In this document: one piece after another, positions 44,954 to 53,375 of the stretch | Layout of the letters: every line of letters begins with the position of its first letter | Numbering within the stretch: the first letter of the stretch is position 1 | Source: an uncultured bacterium | GTDB taxonomy: Bacteria; Actinomycetota; Acidimicrobiia; Spongiisociales; ZC4RG35 | DNA: 64,000 nucleotides | Direction of reading: 5' to 3' | Assembly: GCA_963745865.1 (NCBI GenBank) | Contig: CAVUYZ010000002.1 | Location: 101,514 to 165,513 of the forward strand | Notes under the pieces: generated by a model | The model's database searches: none | Seen by the model: the letters and a program-made list of their open reading frames with translations, nothing else | Told to the model about the DNA's origin: nothing | Made by a program: the position numbers and the translations under genes

Positions 44954-46284
44954 AGCTGGATGAAGAGCTGTTCGACCGTCTCGATCGAGTCGGGCATGGA
45001 GAACAGGATGACTCGGTCCCCGGCTTCGATGGTGCTGATCCCCGACGGAACGAAGGTCTCGCCATTGCGGAGCACCCCGCCGATCACGGCGTCCTTCGGC
45101 ATGTGGAGGTCCACGACGGATCTGCCGACTGCCGGCGAGTTCGCGGCCACCTCGAGCTCGATCGCTTCTGCGTCGGTGTCCTTGAACGTCACCACAGAGT
45201 GGATTCGTCCTCTTCGAACGAACCGGAGGATCGCGCCTGCCGCGATGAGCCGGCTCGAGACTGCGGTGTCGATGCCGGTTCCGGCGAGGAGATTCACGTA
45301 TTCGATCCGGTTGAACCGAGCGACCGTCGATGATGCACCCGTTGCCTTGCCGAGGAGACATCCGAGGATGTTGACCTCATCCCACCCCGTGAGTGCCAAC
45401 ACGGCGTCGCGGTCGTCGAGGTTGAGATTCTTCAACGTGTCCGGATGGACCGGATCGTCGCAGATCACCAGCACCCGTGCTTGGCGTTCTGCGATCTTGC
45501 GACATCGAGCAGGGTCCTGATCGATGACGATGACCTCGTAACCCTCGGCCGTCAGGTTGGCTGCGGTCAACTCGGCCAGCCGCGTCGCACCGAGGATGAT
45601 CACGCGTCTGATGATGTGGTGCCTGACGCCGATGAGGTCGGTCACCCGATCGACGTCCTCGGTGGCCACCATCACCAGGGCATGGTCTCCTGCTTCGATG
45701 ACGGTGTCGCCGTGGGCGACGATCGTCTCACCGAGTCGCACGATCGCGGCGATGACCCAGTCGAACTCGCGTCGAGCCGCCCGAAGCTGGTTCAGCGGTT
45801 TCCCGACCAGATACGAGGCGGGCGGGACCGTCGCTCCGACGAGCGAGAGCGAGCCCGCCCCGAACTCGACGAGCTCGGACACCCCGGATTGTCTCACCAG
45901 GCTCACGAGTTCCGCCGCAGCGGCTTCACCCGGATCGATCACGAAGTCGACCTCGAGTCCGGCGATCGCTTCGCGCATATCCGGGTCCTCGACACGGGCG
46001 ACGGTGCGCTTGACCCCGAGCTCGGCACCGACATGACAGGCGAGCACGTTCGCTCCGTCCGAGTTGGAGACGGCGATCAGGAGGTCGGATCTCTGGACGC
46101 CAGCTTCCTGGAGAACGGTGGGGCTTGCTCCGTTCCCGGTGATCACGAGAGCATCGATTCGGTCTTGCAGCTCGGCGGCTCGGGTCTCGTCGTCCTCGAT
46201 GACGACGACATCCTGGCCCTCCGCAGAAAGGCGTTCGGCGAGATAGGAGCCGACGGCCCCTGCGCCAACGATGACGATTCTCAT
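44950..46284 (-). CDS. trkA: TrkA, two RCK/NAD-binding domains
   Basis: MRIVIVGAGAVGSYLAERL, and a second Rossmann fold RRVIILGATRLAELTA. Confidence 0.9.
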   Translation of the reverse strand: MRIVIVGAGAVGSYLAERLSAEGQDVVVIEDDETRAAELQDRIDALVITGNGASPTVLQEAGVQRSDLLIAVSNSDGANVLACHVGAELGVKRTVARVEDPDMREAIAGLEVDFVIDPGEAAAAELVSLVRQSGVSELVEFGAGSLSLVGATVPPASYLVGKPLNQLRAARREFDWVIAAIVRLGETIVAHGDTVIEAGDHALVMVATEDVDRVTDLIGVRHHIIRRVIILGATRLAELTAANLTAEGYEVIVIDQDPARCRKIAERQARVLVICDDPVHPDTLKNLNLDDRDAVLALTGWDEVNILGCLLGKATGASSTVARFNRIEYVNLLAGTGIDTAVSSRLIAAGAILRFVRRGRIHSVVTFKDTDAEAIELEVAANSPAVGRSVVDLHMPKDAVIGGVLRNGETFVPSGISTIEAGDRVILFSMPDSIETVEQLFIQL

Positions 46285-46423
46285 AGATCAGTCCACACGA
46301 TCGGATCAGGATACGCCGGTGGGATGCCCGGCTCTACACGCCGCTCCCCGGACGAACGTGGAGCCTGTCACCGATCCACTTACACTTCGGGAGTTCACGC
46401 ACCGACCGCTCCGGAGTGCCACA

Positions 46424-47289
46424 TGACCCTCGACCGCTTCGATTCGCCCTCGGCCCTCGCCGAGGCACTTCGTTCTGTCTCGTATCTCCCCGATGATCGC
46501 ATCTCCCAAGTCGCGTTCCTGGCAGCAGCTCTCGGCAAGCCGGTGTTGGTCGAAGGTCCTGCTGGAGTGGGCAAGACCGAACTTGCCAAGGCGCTGGCCA
46601 TGGTGACAGGTCGCAAATTGATCCGCCTGCAGTGTTACGAGGGGCTCGACGAGTCCCGGGCGCTGTACGAGTGGAACTACAAGAAGCAGCTTCTCAGAAT
46701 CCAGGCCGATGAGGGTCACGACTGGTCCGAGATCGAGGACGACATCTTCTCCGAGGACTTCCTCCTGGCACGCCCCCTCCTCGAGGCGATCCGCTCGGAG
46801 GAGCCGGTGGTCCTGCTCATCGATGAGATCGATCGCGTCGAGATGGAAACCGAGGCCCTCCTCCTCGAGGTGTTGTCGGACTTCCAGGTCTCGATCCCCG
46901 AGTTGGGCACCGTCACTGCCAAGACGCAGCCACTGGTGATTCTGACGTCCAACAACACCCGGGAGCTGTCTGAGGCGCTGAAGCGGCGTTGTCTCTTCCT
47001 GCACATCTCGTATCCGACCCCCGAGCGTGAACGGGAAATTCTCCTCGCCCGAATCCCGGAACTGCCGGAGCGCCTCGCCGGCGAGATCGCCCGTGTGGCG
47101 CGCTCGGTGCGGGCGATGGATCTCAAGAAGGCACCGTCGATCTCCGAGACGATCGACTGGGCTCGAACACTCCTCGCGCTGGGGATCGAACATGTCGACA
47201 CCAACGTGGTGCAGGAGACGATCCACGTGTTCCTCAAGTACCAGGCGGACATCGATCGGGCGCTCAAAGAGTTCTCGACGGTGGAGTGA
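46424..47289 (+). CDS. MoxR-family AAA+ ATPase
   Basis: VLVEGPAGVGKTELAKALA is the Walker A motif and LLIDEIDRV is the Walker B motif. Confidence 0.85.
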
Positions 47290-47297
47290 TCGCGTGC

Positions 47298-48797
47298 TCT
47301 CACTGATGACGGCGTTCGTCGAGGAGCTCCGGGTCGTCGGTGTCCCCGTCTCGATGGTCGAGACCCTCGACGCGATGAAGGCGACCGAGCATGTCGACCT
47401 GGCGGATCGCGGGGCGTTCAAAGAGGCTCTTCGCGCGACCCTGGTCAAGAACAGTCGCCACGAAGGTGCGTTCGACACGGCGTTCGAGGTGTTCTTCGCA
47501 GACCGGAGTCGGACGCTCAGCCTGGGAGCCGGAGGAGCAGACCGAGTCGCAGGCGCAAGGGCAGTCGGACGGAGCCGAGAGTGGTGGGGGCGGCTCATCA
47601 CGCGACCTGCAGGACTTGATCGAGTCTCTGTTCAACGCTCTTGCACAGCAGGACTTCTCCCAACTCAGGCAGTCGGCTCGCGACGCCATCGACGATCTCG
47701 CCGGGATGGAACCCGGTCGACCGGTCGGAGGGACCTACTACCTCTACCGGACGCTCCGTCAACTCGACATCGACGCACTGGAGCAGCGGTTGCTCGAAGC
47801 CATGATGGCCGAGCAACCCGATCTCGACGACCTCGAGCAGCGGCTCATCACCGAGGAGGTGGCCGGACGGATCGAGCGACTTCGCGAGGAGTTGTCGGAG
47901 GAGATCAGGCGACGTCTCGTCGAAGACCGCGGTCACGAGGCGGTGGCGAAGACCCTGCGGAAGCCACTCACCGAAGAGTTGGACCTGATGCACGCCACCC
48001 GGCATGATCTCCGATCGATCGAAGAGGTCGTTGAGCCGCTCACCAGGAAACTCGCCGCCCGACTGGCACAGAAGCGACGTAACCAGAACCGGGGTCGCCT
48101 CGACTTCCGCAAGACCGTTCGGAGCTCATTGGGATCGGGCGGAGTGCCGATCGAGCCGAAGTTCAGGAACAAGCGACCGCACAAACCTGAGCTCTTCCTG
48201 ATCTGTGACGTCTCCGGTTCGATGGCCACGTTCGCTCGATTCACCCTCCAATTCACCTATGCGATGGCGAACCAATTCTCTCGGCTTCGTGCCTTTGTTT
48301 TCGTGGATGCGGTCGATGAGGTGACCGACTTCCTGAAGCCGGGATCCGACTTCAAGGACGCCCTGGCCCGAATTTCAACGGAGGCCGACGTGGTCTGGCT
48401 CGACGGCCACTCCGATTACGGCCATGCGCTCGAGCAGTTCATGTCGAGATACGGGCGGGAGCTCACTCCCCGTTCGACCGTCATCGTCACAGGCGATGCC
48501 CGGAACAACTACCGGGAGCCGAGAGAGGCGTATCTCGCCCAGATCTCCGAACGATCCAAGCATCTCTACTGGTTGAATCCCGAGCCCACGAGCTATTGGG
48601 ACAGTGGTGATTCGGTGATGGGACGCTACGCGAAGTACTGCGACGAGGTGTTCGAAGTTCGGAATCTGAAGCAATTGGAGGCTTTCGTCGAAACAATCGC
48701 GGTCGAGCGACATACAATCCGTCGCAGCGCAGTGGCTCCCGGGGCCAACCGAGACTCACACACATATTCGAAGAATTCCCTCAACTACACACCGTGA
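47298..48797 (+). CDS. VWA-domain protein (CoxE-like MoxR partner), with one frameshift at about 47520
   Basis: LFLICDVSGSMATF is the MIDAS DxSxS motif. It lies directly downstream of moxR. Confidence 0.8.
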
Positions 48798-48815: not shown

Positions 48816-49181
48816 GTGGGACAACGAATTCTTGTCATAGAAGACTCAGCAGTGATCCGCCGGCTGATCGAAGTCTGCCTCCGGGCCGCCGATCTGGAGA
48901 TCCTCATGCGTGAGGACGGACCGACCGGCTTGGACGCAGTGCGGACTGAATCGCCTGATCTGCTGGTCCTCGACATCGGTCTCCCCGGCATGGATGGATG
49001 GCAGGTCCTCGACCACATCCGCAGCGATCAGGCGACCCGATCGCTCCCCGTCGTCGTGCTGACCGCCCACGCCGAGGAAGAGTCTCGACGCCGTGCCGAC
49101 GAGGGTGGCGCCGACGCGTTCGTCACCAAGCCGTTCCAGCCCAACGACTTCCGTCAGACAGTCCTCGACCTCCTCGCATAA
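48816..49181 (+). CDS. Stand-alone response regulator receiver domain (CheY-like)
   Basis: ILVIEDSAVIRRL...LLVLDIGLPGMDGWQVL...FVTKPF. Confidence 0.85.
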   Translation: MGQRILVIEDSAVIRRLIEVCLRAADLEILMREDGPTGLDAVRTESPDLLVLDIGLPGMDGWQVLDHIRSDQATRSLPVVVLTAHAEEESRRRADEGGADAFVTKPFQPNDFRQTVLDLLA

Positions 49182-49189
49182 CTCGCTCT

Positions 49190-49429
49190 GCTCGACCCCT
49201 TGGCTTGGTGATGCAGCGTTTACCTCGGCCGTGGCGGCCTCGTCAAATCCCCCGTTGCGCTTGTCTCGACGTCATGAGTCGTTTGTTCCTCCGGCGGGAG
49301 GGGTTGTACACGAACCAACGAATGCACTTGTTCTGGCTTCGATCATTGTTTGTCCCTCCGGCGGGGGGACGGGGTTCGTCCTACGAACCCAGGGGGCGTT
49401 GTCGCGGATCCCCCGGCGAACTCAGGGGG
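49190..49429. repeat. Second locus of the hairpin A / hairpin B palindromic repeat family, in inverted orientation
   Basis: GTTTGTCCCTCCGGCGGGGGGAC and GTTTGTTCCTCCGGCGGGAGGGG, plus GGGGTTCGTCCTACGAACCC. Compare with the locus at 24960-25330. Confidence 0.55.
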
Positions 49430-50446
49430 CTAGGCCGGGATCAGCTCTGCCATTCGGTCGATCAGGTCGACGACTCGGTTCGAGTAGCCCCACTCGTTGT
49501 CGTACCAGCTGAGGACCTTCACCAGATTCCCACCCAGGACCTGAGTCGATTCGGCATCGAAGATCGAGGAGTGGGGGTTGCCGATGATGTCGGTGGACAC
49601 CAGCGGAACTTCCGAGTACTGGAGGATGCCCTTCAGCGGGCCGTCGGCGGCAGCCTTGACCGCGGCGTTGATGCTCTCGACGGTGACATCGGACTCGAGT
49701 TCGACCACGAGGTCGACCGTCGACCCATCTGGGACCGGGACGCGCATCGCCATGCCGTCGAGCTTGCCCTCGAGCCGAGGCAGGACCTGGCCGACCGCCG
49801 CGGCGGCTCCGGTGGTGGTGGGGATGATGTTCTCGGTCGCGGCCCGGCTGCGGCGAAGGTCCTTGTGGGGGACGTCGGCCAACCGCTGGTCGTTGGTGTA
49901 GGCGTGGACGGTCGTCATCACACCCCGAGTGATTCCGAACGCGTCGTCGAGGACCTTTGCGAGCGGGGCCAGGCAATTCGTCGTGCACGATGCGTTCGAG
50001 ACGATCACGTCGCTGGCATCGAGCTCCTGGTCGTTCACACCGAGCACCACCATCTCGTCGACCGAGCCCTTGGGGGGCACCGTCAGGATGACTCGCTTGG
50101 CGCCGGCGTCGATGTGGGGCTGCAGCTTGGCGCGGTCACGGAACACGCCGGTGGCCTCGATCACGATATCGACATCGAGCTCTGCCCAGGGGAGATCTGC
50201 AGGGTTGCGCTCCATGAGCATCTTCACCGAATGGCGACCAACAGTCATGGTCCCGTCGCTCACCGTGGGATGGACGTCGAGATGACCCATGACCGAGTCG
50301 TACTCGAGGAGGTAGGCGAGGATGTCGTCGTCTGCGAGGTCGTTGATCGCAACTACCTCGACGTCGGGGTTGTCGCGTTTGAGGATGATCCTGAAGACGT
50401 TTCGGCCGATGCGGCCGAACCCGTTGATTGCGACTCGAGTGGTCAT
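49430..50446 (-). CDS. gap: Glyceraldehyde-3-phosphate dehydrogenase, type I (canonical)
   Basis: INGFGRIGRNVFR, SNASCTTNCLAP with the catalytic Cys, and TTVHAYT. Confidence 0.9.
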   Translation of the reverse strand: MTTRVAINGFGRIGRNVFRIILKRDNPDVEVVAINDLADDDILAYLLEYDSVMGHLDVHPTVSDGTMTVGRHSVKMLMERNPADLPWAELDVDIVIEATGVFRDRAKLQPHIDAGAKRVILTVPPKGSVDEMVVLGVNDQELDASDVIVSNASCTTNCLAPLAKVLDDAFGITRGVMTTVHAYTNDQRLADVPHKDLRRSRAATENIIPTTTGAAAAVGQVLPRLEGKLDGMAMRVPVPDGSTVDLVVELESDVTVESINAAVKAAADGPLKGILQYSEVPLVSTDIIGNPHSSIFDAESTQVLGGNLVKVLSWYDNEWGYSNRVVDLIDRMAELIPA

Positions 50447-51468
50447 GCGGATGCTCCTTGCAGTGTGTCGGCCATGAGCTCGGCGACCTCGATGAGGCGG
50501 GTGGTGTAGCCCCAGCCGTTGTTGTACCAGGTGATGGTCTTGACCAGCGTGTCGCTCATCACCATCGTCGCCAGGCTGTCGAAGACCGCCGACTCCGGCT
50601 CCATTCTCACATCTGATGAAACGATCGGATCGGTGTTGTATTCCAGGATGCCTGCGTATACGCCTTCGGACGCGCTCTTGATGGCTGCGTTGACTTCGTC
50701 GACGGTCGTCGGCGTCGCAACGTAGGCCACGAGGTCGATGGTCGAACCGTCCGCGACGGGCACGTTGAGAGCCTGTCCGCTCAGCTTGCCGGCGAACTCG
50801 GGCATCACCGCGACGAGAATGTCTGCGGAGTTGGTCGGGCCGGGGATGATGTTCTCGCCTGCGGCCCGACTCTGCCGGAACCCCTCGGTCGGAACGTCCG
50901 CAAGGCGCTGGGAGTTCGTCATCGCATGCACCGTCGTGAAGAAGGCCCGCTCGATCCCGAACGACGCATCGAGCGTCTTGAGGATCGGGGCGAGGGCGTT
51001 CGACGTGTTCGAGCCGAGCGCCACGACGTGGGTGTCTGCGGTCAGGATCTCGTCGTTGACGCCCTTCAGGAGGAGAGGAACCGGTGAGCCCTGCTCGGGA
51101 GTGGACGCAAGGATGACCTTCTTCGCGCCGCGGTCGAGGTGCTTCTGGAGGTGCTCAGCCGTGCGGTACTTTCCCACGGCCTGTACCACGATGTCGACGT
51201 CGTAGTCGCTCCAGTTGGCGTCGCCCGGTTCGCGTGCCGAGATGAACGGGATCTTCCGTCCGTTGAGGAAGATGCTGTCTCCCTCCATCTCGATCGGGAC
51301 GGGGAAGCGCCCGTAGATCGAGTCGTATTTCAACAGGTATGTGAGGCCTTCGGGGTCGTCGATGTCGGCGATGACGGCTACTTCGAGGTCGGGGTGATCG
51401 GTGAGCATTCGGAAGACGTTCTTCCCGATGCGCCCGAAACCCATGAGACCCAGGCGTGTCTTGCTCAT
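50443..51468 (-). CDS. GAPDH-like paralog lacking the catalytic cysteine motif (putative pseudo-enzyme)
   Basis: LMGFGRIGKNVFR is an intact NAD-binding motif, but the active site reads GSNTSNALAP instead of SNASCTTNCLAP. The ORF is an intact 341 aa. Confidence 0.8.
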   Translation of the reverse strand: MSKTRLGLMGFGRIGKNVFRMLTDHPDLEVAVIADIDDPEGLTYLLKYDSIYGRFPVPIEMEGDSIFLNGRKIPFISAREPGDANWSDYDVDIVVQAVGKYRTAEHLQKHLDRGAKKVILASTPEQGSPVPLLLKGVNDEILTADTHVVALGSNTSNALAPILKTLDASFGIERAFFTTVHAMTNSQRLADVPTEGFRQSRAAGENIIPGPTNSADILVAVMPEFAGKLSGQALNVPVADGSTIDLVAYVATPTTVDEVNAAIKSASEGVYAGILEYNTDPIVSSDVRMEPESAVFDSLATMVMSDTLVKTITWYNNGWGYTTRLIEVAELMADTLQGASA

Positions 51469-51585
51469 GTTGTTCCTCAGTCGTTGTGTTCTGGTCGAAA
51501 CCTAGTCGCCGTCGGTGTTGTGCGCCGTTGCCGGAAGATGAACAAGGGTCTTCTGCCGAGGCGCTCCCGTTCGTAGGTTGACGGC

Positions 51586-52009
51586 GTGATCCGCTCTCTC
51601 GTTCTCGCCGTATGTCTGCTGACAGCTCCTGTCTCGTCTCCCGTCGGGATCGGCTTCGCACCTGGTGACGGATTCGACGGGCATTGGGGGGTCGATCTGT
51701 CCGTTCCTTTCGGTACGCCGGTGGCAGCGCCAGCTCGATGGCCTGGTCACCTTCGCCGGTTCAGTTGCCGGAATGCGATCGGTCACGCTGGATCATGGCG
51801 GAGGTCTCCGAACCTCGGTCTCGTACCTGTCTGAGATCTCGGTCGTCGTTGGGCAACGGGTTCGCTCGGGAGACCCCGTCGGACGAGCCGGACAGCCCCA
51901 CGGCGTCCCCGGAGTGCACCTGTCGGCGCGGCTCGCTGGAACGTACGTGGACCCCGAGCCGCTGCTCGACTGTCTCGACGGTGTGATCCGTCTGGTGCTC
52001 GATCGGTAG
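51586..52009 (+). CDS. Secreted M23-family (LytM-like) peptidase, with one frameshift at about 51730
   Basis: Signal peptide MIRSLVLAVCLLTA, then GHWGVDLSVPFGTPVAAPA and then LDHGGGLRTSVSYLSEI...HLHFE-like motifs. Confidence 0.7.
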
Positions 52010-52663: not shown

Positions 52664-53038
52664 GTCTCACAGAACAGCGAATCTCACGACATCGCCCGTA
52701 TCGCCGCCGACGCGCTCGACGACAAGAAGGGGTCCGACATCGTGCTCCTCGACGTTGGCGACCTGCTCTCCATCACCGAGGTCTTCGTGATCGCAACGGG
52801 GAACGCTCGTCCCCATGTCAAGACACTCGCTGAAACGGTGGTCGAGAAGCTGAGGGATCACGATCGGAGGCCGCTCCGGTCGGAAGGCGAAGCAGAAGCC
52901 GAATGGATTCTGTTGGACTACGGCGACTTCGTAGTGCATGTGTTCCAGGAGACGCCGAGGGATTTCTATGGTCTCGAGCGATTGTGGGGAGACGCACCCC
53001 GGGTCGCGTGGGAGGCGACTGTCGCCTCCGAGGGCTGA
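52664..53038 (+). CDS. rsfS: Ribosomal silencing factor RsfS (Iojap)
   Basis: KKGSDIVLLDVGDLLSITEVFVIATGNARPHVKTLAE...DYGDFVVHVF; GTG start. Confidence 0.85.
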   Translation, partial: VSQNSESHDIARIAADALDDKKGSDIVLLDVGDLLSITEVFVIATGNARPHVKTLAETVVEKLRDHDRRPLRSEGEAEAEWILLDYGDFVVHVFQETPRDFYGLERLWGDAPRVAWEATVASEG

Positions 53039-53097
53039 CGACGGCGGAAGAATTGTCGGGCGGGCGATCGACTCGATACACTTTCGCATTCCCCGAT

Positions 53098-53171
53098 GGG
53101 GCTGTAGCTCAGCCTGGCAGAGCACTTGCATGGCATGCAAGGGGTCAGGGGTTCGAATCCCCTCAGCTCCA
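53098..53171 (+). tRNA. tRNA-Ala(GGC) with the G3:U70 identity pair
   Basis: GGGGCTGTAGCTCAGCCTGG, anticodon loop ATGGCAT, T-arm GGGGTTCGAATCCCC. Confidence 0.85.
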
Positions 53172-53176
53172 CAACT

Positions 53177-53212
53177 CGAAGTCCCCCGTGTTTGCGGGGG
53201 ACTTCGTCGTTT
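53177..53212 (+). terminator. Hairpin terminator after tRNA-Ala
   Basis: CGAAGTCCCCCG-tgtttg-CGGGGGACTTCG followed by TCGTTTC. Confidence 0.6.
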
Positions 53213-53375
53213 CAAGGAGTCAGGCGATGGTTACGAATCTCGGCGAGGCAATGGAGCGCCCATCTGTTCTCTAGAGACCGTAGGGCATGAATGACAGATC
53301 GAGCCAGCGGAGCTGGTCACTGCCGGTGCTCGGCTCGGGTGCATTTCGTCACCCGGGCCGAGTCTCCAGCGTGTA

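Follow-up and report, generated by a model that had tools for sequence, protein, structure and literature searches.

The members of the GapDH superfamily are all centred on an active-site cysteine, as set out in a 2025 review (PMC12041015). In a 64,000-nucleotide stretch of DNA from an uncultured bacterium of the class Acidimicrobiia (contig CAVUYZ010000002.1, positions 101,514 to 165,513; hereafter the window), two glyceraldehyde-3-phosphate dehydrogenase (GAPDH) family genes lie in tandem: a canonical gap and, upstream of it, a paralog without this cysteine, which we call gapX and its product GapX. Sequence comparison revealed that GapX is an ancient paralog, kept under selection in several phyla, which has dropped the cysteine and both phosphate-binding arginines and nevertheless is always coupled in translation to a gap of canonical type. 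Type I phosphorylating GAPDH (GapA; TIGR01534; EC 1.2.1.12), the family from which GapX derives by duplication and to which it is 41-47% identical, has the same domain architecture, fold, Rossmann motif, Asp32, Asn313, Tyr317, His176 and S-loop framework (residues are numbered as in G. stearothermophilus GAPDH, checked against the alignment to PDB sequences). Unlike GapX, it has Cys149, Arg195, Arg231 and Glu314; GapX is always found upstream of a coupled true member of this family.

Mixed tetramers of paralogous GAPDH subunits, in which one type confers regulation, are described for plant chloroplast A2B2-GAPDH and yeast Tdh hybrids (10.1101/2021.11.21.469434, PMC7017825). Both subunit types of these tetramers are catalytically competent, whereas GapX is disabled and is a hypothetical co-assembly partner of Gap. 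Regulation of the plant enzyme depends on a C-terminal, CP12-like extension on GapB; GapX has no such C-terminal extension (341 versus 338 amino acids for Gap, with end-to-end alignment) and no Cys149. Catalytically dead duplicates under purifying selection that form a heteromer with the active paralog are described for the trypanosomatid prozymes of AdoMetDC and PRMT1 (PMC6221367, 10.1101/776112). GapX resembles such systems in being a paralog of an active enzyme without essential catalytic residues, in its purifying selection and in its co-occurrence with the active paralog; they differ from it in fold and reaction, and an activating or regulatory effect of GapX is hypothetical. Dead-paralog partner subunits are also found in Firmicute GlgC/GlgD, encoded by adjacent bacterial genes, and in the regulatory subunits of NAD-isocitrate dehydrogenase, and adjacent, translationally coupled paralogous genes often encode subunits of one complex. 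Erythrose-4-phosphate dehydrogenase (Epd) and the ArsJ-associated GAPDH are, like GapX, GAPDH-derived paralogs with altered roles. Both use a Cys nucleophile, unlike GapX, which also scores far below their cut-offs. In the literature that we searched in full text, neither a gapX-gap operon nor a bacterial GAPDH paralog that naturally lacks the Cys is described; no dead partner subunit of GAPDH was described in the literature searched, and no curated family was found. The gapX-gap two-gene unit appears to be undescribed, and we infer for GapX the function of a pseudoenzyme, a partner paralog of GAPDH.

The pair and its elements in the window are:

50443..51468, minus strand: gapX, GAPDH-like paralog of 341 amino acids (open reading frame, ORF, and translation), without Cys149, Cys153, Arg195, Arg231 and Glu314.
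49430..50446, minus strand: gap, canonical type I GAPDH of 338 amino acids, with SNASCTTNCLAP, His176, Arg195 and Arg231 present.
50443..50446, minus strand: ATGA stop/start overlap, the TGA of gapX lying over the ATG of gap (read from the sequence).
50454..50459, minus strand: AAGGAG Shine-Dalgarno (SD) element of gap, within the 3' end of gapX and 7 nt before the gap ATG.
51474..51478, minus strand: GAGGA SD-like element of gapX, 5 nt upstream of the gapX ATG.
50995..51015, minus strand: codons G152-S-N-T-S-N-A158, the former active-site motif of gapX (from the alignment).
51007-51009, minus strand: gapX Asn154 codon AAC, in place of the nucleophile Cys149 (from the alignment).
50926..50928, minus strand: gapX His181 codon, the kept equivalent of the catalytic His176 (His in 165/167).
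50764..50766, minus strand: gapX Asn235 codon, in place of the substrate-phosphate ligand Arg231 (Asn in 166/167).
51424..51441, minus strand: gapX codons G10-F-G-R-I-G15, the Rossmann GxGxxG dinucleotide-binding motif, kept and family-invariant.

Both genes are intact ORFs, arranged head to tail on the minus strand with gapX upstream. An earlier note on this DNA had reported this arrangement, the 4-nt overlap of the coordinates and the motifs of the two products, namely GFGRIG, TTVHAMT and GSNTSNALAP in GapX and SNASCTTNCLAP and TTVHAYT in Gap, and all of these were borne out. The two proteins are 45% identical over 335 residues with three gapped positions (BLASTP), and in the end-to-end alignment the gaps are confined to near residues 22 and 122. 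The loss of the cysteines had been ascribed to an in-frame deletion of three amino acids, C-T-T (9 nt). The BLASTP alignment is ungapped across the active site, with VSNASCTTNCLAP opposite ALGSNTSNALAP and SNASCTTNCLAP of Gap pairing column for column with ALGSNTSNALAP of GapX; therefore, the motif was changed by substitution. The equivalents of Cys149 and Cys153 are gone, and the latter has become Ala, as had been claimed, but the deletion as the cause has to be dropped, since both changes are substitutions.

The residues of the active site were surveyed in 167 GapX family sequences and 47 partner (Gap) sequences. Cys149, the catalytic nucleophile of GAPDH in the S-C-T-T-N motif, where His176 is the general base, is replaced by Asn in 167/167 GapX sequences, and Cys153 by Ala in 167/167. 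Arg231 and Arg195, the substrate phosphate site (Ps) and the inorganic phosphate site (Pi) of GAPDH, are replaced by Asn in 166/167 and by Gln, Ser or Thr across the family, respectively, with Gln in the window. Gly209 is Asn in 156/167 sequences and Glu314 is Gly in 166/166; further replacements are Asp312 to Asn, Asn31 to Ala and Asn6 to Met. The changes at 195, 209, 231 and 314 had been overlooked in the earlier note. His176 is kept in all but two of the 167 sequences, and Ser148, Thr150, Thr179 and Thr208 are kept as well. So are the NAD-binding residues of GAPDH, i.e. GxGxxG, Arg10, Asp32, Thr96, Asn313 and Tyr317, and the Asp35 (Asp32), Asn317 (Asn313) and Tyr321 (Tyr317) of the window gapX are invariant in the family. 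The conservation of the S-loop framework, RLADVP...R...SRAA...ENIIP, matches that in the catalytic partner. The key residues checked in the canonical Gap are invariant across its 47 orthologues.

Judged from its residues, GapX cannot make the thiohemiacetal/thioester intermediate, and both phosphate-binding arginines are gone. Because it has no thiol nucleophile and no Arg195 or Arg231, it is predicted to be without glyceraldehyde-3-phosphate (G3P) dehydrogenase activity and unable to carry out the phosphorylating oxidation of G3P with NAD+ and inorganic phosphate to 1,3-bisphosphoglycerate. It probably still binds NAD, and it looks able to take up the GAPDH quaternary scaffold.

The two proteins have the same Pfam architecture of Gp_dh_N and Gp_dh_C, with E-values of 1e-27 and 7e-50 for GapX. 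An alignment with the GAPDH and Epd families, which the earlier note had called for, placed GapX below the cut-offs of both: against TIGR01534 (type I GAPDH, EC 1.2.1.12; cut-off 367.2 bits) GapX scored 321.7 bits and Gap 446.5 bits, and against the Epd models (TIGR01532 / NF010058) GapX scored 238-239 bits with cut-offs of 530-539. Over the Epd and ArsJ-associated GAPDH models taken together it was sub-threshold, with 238-294 bits against cut-offs of 450-539. Assignment of GapX to Epd, ArsJ-GAPDH or another curated family was rejected, every NCBIfam score being below cut-off; Epd also needs Cys. The AlphaFold2 model of the GapX monomer has a confident GAPDH fold (predicted local distance difference test, pLDDT, 85.3; predicted template modelling score, pTM, 0.85). 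Its low-confidence part is solely residues 183-206, the S-loop, as would be expected of a segment ordered by inter-subunit contacts in the tetramer. Foldseek matched GapX to ordinary GAPDHs alone (1gd1, 1npt and others; template modelling score, TM, 0.88-0.89). The best PDB and Foldseek matches were engineered C149A and C149S mutants, and neither the PDB sequence search nor the Foldseek search found a structure of a natural Cys-less GAPDH. GapX is a member of the GAPDH fold and superfamily that is without the type I nucleophile and without Arg195 and Arg231, and that falls below the curated type I cut-off.

A Cys-less gene could also come from an error of assembly or sequencing, or be a pseudogene in decay, and 1-nt frameshifts do occur in this assembly, as had been remarked before: the M23 peptidase-like gene beside gapX is split by one. 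The gapX ORF is intact, its change is a substitution and not an indel, and 167 independent sequences, obtained from many samples and with many assemblers, share its motif. Identity to gapX among the 120 best database homologues is 61-100%, compared with 45% for the neighbouring gap, and GSNT(S/A)NA is present in 120/120 of these closest homologues. A scan with one genome per species gave about 50 gapX loci at 56-81% identity, nearly all in metagenome-assembled genomes with the label Acidimicrobiia and a few with no more than 'bacterium' or 'Actinomycetota'; the samples came from soil, sponge, coral and marine OM1. Beneath this range, identity falls sharply to 47% or less, which is ordinary GAPDH. 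The ratio of non-synonymous to synonymous change (dN/dS; Nei-Gojobori, close orthologue pairs with dS below about 0.7) was 0.02-0.16 for gapX and 0.02-0.15 for gap, and over all pairs the non-synonymous change of gapX was about 1.7 times that of gap. Evidently, conservation and dN/dS rule out a sequencing error or pseudogene, and we consider the chance of either to be vanishingly small. The search for Cys-less orthologues in related genomes, proposed earlier, thus yielded some 50 species-level loci, whose dN/dS contradicts neutral, pseudogene-like evolution in the relatives; and the view that the gene is a genuine selected paralog stands, with Asn149 in every family sequence and a gap partner at each Acidimicrobiia locus that has downstream sequence.

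The codon bias of gapX is strong like that of gap (effective number of codons 37.8 versus 35.8, with 40-45 for the neighbouring genes), and the G + C content at third codon positions is 0.85 and 0.86, respectively. In public annotation the GapX proteins are named "glyceraldehyde-3-phosphate dehydrogenase", and with such labels too many copies of gap are counted when the metabolism of bacteria abundant in the environment is reconstructed.

The pairing with gap is as constant as the altered motif. A canonical Cys-type gap was found directly after gapX on the same strand in 48/48 Acidimicrobiia loci with downstream sequence, and a 4-nt ATGA or GTGA overlap in 47/49 Acidimicrobiia gapX-gap junctions, the window counted; the 4-nt overlap was also found in Acidobacteriota, Planctomycetota and other lineages. 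An AGGAG-type SD core of gap lies inside gapX, with at least 4 nt in 35/47 loci and at least 5 nt in 24/47. The SD of gapX itself is weaker and less conserved than that of gap, 19 of the 47 loci being without a core of at least 4 nt. Signature motifs of pgk and tpiA were found neither within about 6 kb of the pair in any locus nor in the 64-kb window, a motif-based result that very divergent genes could escape, and membership in a gap-pgk-tpiA operon was rejected accordingly. Scans for sigma-70 promoters and intrinsic terminators around the gapX-gap operon gave no matches.

A profile of the GapX family was searched against 1.84 billion cluster representatives, and GapX-like proteins, annotated merely as GAPDH or hypothetical, were found beyond the Acidimicrobiia; the taxonomy of several of these subclades consists of depositor labels only. 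Derived features common to the closest representatives are Met/Phe/Val6, (A/V)I(S/A)D at 29-32 and the loss of Arg231 and Glu314. Residue 149 differs between the representatives as follows:

Asn: P0122, P0128.
Ser: P0131, P0132, P0136, P0139.
Val: P0125, P0137.
Ala: P0129.
Gly: P0134.
Pro: P0140.
Cys (retained): P0124.

By their source names, P0124 belongs to Acidobacteriota, P0131 to Planctomycetota, and P0132 and P0136 to unclassified marine bacteria. Residue 149 is fixed inside each of the five clusters checked. In the pocket, residues 195, 209 and 231 change from one subclade to another, with Trp at 209 in some; Arg231 is absent from every GapX-like subclade, and His176 is kept across nearly the whole clade. 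The Acidobacteriota subclade keeps Cys149 and His176, and Arg195, Arg231 and Glu314 are gone from it.

In this wider clade too, a canonical gap lies immediately downstream, mostly with an ATGA overlap (P0136, P0124, P0125, P0129, P0131, P0132, P0140 and P0139), in neighbourhoods that are unrelated to each other. Every GapX-like member with readable downstream sequence has an adjoining canonical gap; P0137 and P0134 give no pairing information, their contigs ending right after the gene. The reciprocal test gave the same picture: P0133 and P0127, which are canonical and within the partner clade, were each predicted to have an upstream GapX-like gene, and both have one, with a 4-nt overlap and with Ala149 and Asn149, respectively.

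In a neighbour-joining tree (Kimura distances, 334 columns, 200 bootstraps), all GapX-like proteins formed one clade in 186/200 bootstraps (93%; long-branch attraction is possible with this method). The gap partners from different phyla grouped together within the canonical GAPDHs, and within Acidimicrobiia the topologies of the two paralogs mirrored each other. Because of the bootstrap support for this clade and the shared derived residues, we conclude that GapX had a single origin. An independent duplication in each phylum is rejected on the same support together with the shared Met6 and Ser/Ala31 and the shared loss of Arg231 and Glu314. The data fit a single ancient gap duplication, after which the pair would have been inherited or transferred as a unit. 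Since the Acidobacteriota form retains Cys, the comparison suggests an order of loss in which Arg231, Arg195 and Glu314 went first and the nucleophile followed later, several times independently.

We propose that GapX, catalytically dead but NAD-binding, is a partner subunit and co-assembles with Gap, a proposal on which our belief and our doubt are about equal. GapX would have arisen once by duplication of gap, and gapX would since have been inherited, and at times transferred, with one particular canonical gap lineage. The two-gene unit, with gapX first, the ATGA overlap and the SD of gap inside gapX, is translationally coupled, and GapX and Gap would be made in fixed proportion from the same mRNA. 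They may then co-assemble as a GAPDH-type hetero-oligomer, for example an X2C2 tetramer, in which the part of GapX would be structural or regulatory and not catalytic, its degenerate pocket and NAD site being available for binding or allostery. NAD binding by GapX, its physical association with Gap and its regulatory effect are what we infer from sequence comparison. In keeping with the role of a partner, the NAD residues and the S-loop are kept while the replacements in the active and phosphate sites are invariant in the family. As residues 149, 195, 209 and 231 vary between subclades, the partnership, and not a common catalytic pocket, is the constant feature of the clade. The earlier note had offered a moonlighting, regulatory or binding role or a neofunctionalised dehydrogenase; a non-canonical paralog under selection was correctly recognised there, and a role as partner subunit is favoured over these free-standing alternatives because the ancient cross-phylum pair is constantly coupled to canonical gap.

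Several observations speak against a partner subunit or do not single it out. The evolutionary rates of GapX and Gap covary with a partial correlation coefficient of 0.52, which does not stand out from the 0.64 for GapX and the VWA protein and 0.71 for Gap and the VWA protein (four neighbouring genes compared). No partner-specific covariation was found between the S-loops of GapX and Gap, the loop being highly conserved in both. The altered pocket of the Acidimicrobiia form (Asn149, Asn209, Asn231, Gly314 and Gln/Ser/Thr195) is very strongly conserved, and this, the clade-wide His176 and the Cys149 of Acidobacteriota would also be in line with a pocket in which a ligand is still bound or converted. 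GapX might accordingly be a stand-alone, neofunctionalised NAD-dependent enzyme or metabolite-binding protein, in which His176 and a neutral polar pocket serve a different or non-phosphorylated substrate and which is co-transcribed with gap merely through their common tie to central carbon metabolism. The kept residues are compatible with such a protein (the Rossmann motif, Asp32, Asn313, Tyr317, His176, Ser148, Thr150, Thr179 and Thr208), as are the near-invariance of Asn149, Asn209, Asn231 and Gly314 in Acidimicrobiia, the Acidobacteriota subclade that retains Cys149 and His176 without Arg195, Arg231 and Glu314, and a pyk-gapX-gap operon (locus L094) beside Entner-Doudoroff and sugar-kinase genes. 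However, residue 149 changes with the subclade (Asn, Ser, Val, Ala, Gly, Pro or Cys), and residues 195, 209 and 231 are unconserved clade-wide, even with Trp209 in some, so that there is no common catalytic apparatus. Moreover, no GapX was seen without an adjoining canonical gap, conservation of the overlap junction is much stricter than usual for enzymes that only share regulation, and no alternative chemistry is hinted at by curated families or solved structures. We therefore regard a stand-alone enzyme or binding protein as rather unlikely.

Another explanation is that GapX acts non-enzymatically and independently of Gap, for example by sensing NAD(H) or redox state, by moonlighting as a binder of RNA or protein, or as a decoy without a thiol, and is merely co-expressed with it. 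GAPDH proteins are well-known moonlighters according to a review (PMC7765867), and GapX has kept the NAD-binding residues and lost catalysis. Against this, an independent factor would need neither the strict gene order nor the cross-phylum ATGA coupling nor the co-inheritance with one gap lineage, the Acidimicrobiia form has no extra domains (341 versus 338 amino acids), and conservation of the S-loop framework, which forms the tetramer core, equals that in catalytic GAPDH. We consider this explanation improbable, more so than a stand-alone enzyme.

If GapX is a partner subunit of Gap, it would give a new view of GAPDH quaternary structure, cooperativity and regulation in these lineages and a clean bacterial case of the passage from a homomer to a heteromer with a dead subunit. 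A further-reaching form of this proposal, which we put forward tentatively and which falls somewhat short of an even chance, is that several phyla, among them the abundant marine Acidimicrobiia, Planctomycetota, Acidobacteriota and unclassified marine lineages, use an obligate heteromeric GAPDH in glycolysis or gluconeogenesis. The dead, NAD-binding GapX would then take up every second place in the tetramer, and the outcome would be a hard-wired 'half-of-the-sites' enzyme or an allosteric, redox-sensing control of the active subunits. One of the best-studied enzymes would then have a quaternary form that had gone unrecognised.

The gene neighbourhood of the pair in Acidimicrobiia is conserved in 26-43 loci, with the divergent M23-like peptidase gene, nadD and rsfS upstream and genes for the VWA protein, a MoxR-like ATPase, a response regulator and TrkA downstream. 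In the window, a block after gap that is conserved in 31-40 loci comprises the genes for the MoxR-like protein, the VWA protein (47391-48797) and a single-domain response regulator (48816-49181). The MoxR-like AAA ATPase is encoded by a 614-amino-acid ORF (45445-47289, plus strand) whose N-terminal extension is implausibly long and runs over trkA, a gene of the other strand; the true start of the ORF probably lies near 46400. The M23-type peptidase-like gene, divergent from gapX (51586-52009, plus strand), is split by a 1-nt frameshift into the frames 'GHWGVDLSVPFGTPVAAPA' and 'DGLVTFAGSVAGMRSVTLDHGG...'; in loci L021 and L004 the orthologue is one ORF of about 150-160 amino acids, and the split reflects either an indel of the assembly or a true pseudogene. 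A tRNA-Ala gene (GGC) was found just downstream of rsfS (53098-53172, plus strand), and the long ORF lying over it on the minus strand (52667..53215) is probably spurious. About 40 nt past the gap stop there is an 8-bp perfect hairpin, GGGTTCGT-AGG-ACGAACCC (49372-49390, minus strand), without a T-tract; it is not claimed as a terminator, and the region folds no better than shuffled sequence (z = -0.2).

Locus L094 (525-4005) is the sole context found that ties the pair explicitly to glycolysis or the Entner-Doudoroff pathway: an operon of pyruvate kinase, gapX (Ala149) and gap with overlapping junctions adjoins divergent genes for a PfkB kinase, 2-keto-3-deoxy-6-phosphogluconate (KDPG) aldolase, a short-chain dehydrogenase/reductase (SDR) and a major facilitator superfamily (MFS) transporter. 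In the marine Ser149 subclade (P0136 cluster, 137 members; locus L080, 167-1429), an N-terminal extension of about 85 amino acids brings the GapX-like protein to 420 amino acids, and its junction with gap is TAAATG, adjacent and not overlapping. The canonical gap partner of the Pro149 GapX-like gene (locus L090, 4011-5017) is split into pieces of 243 and 104 amino acids, either by a frameshift error or as a decaying partner. Two giant proteins, P0121 (2089 amino acids) and P0130 (1455 amino acids), contain four and two GAPDH-like domains, respectively, of two alternating types; all of these domains keep Cys149, and some have a degenerate GxGxxG ('GRISLA') and degenerate S-loops.

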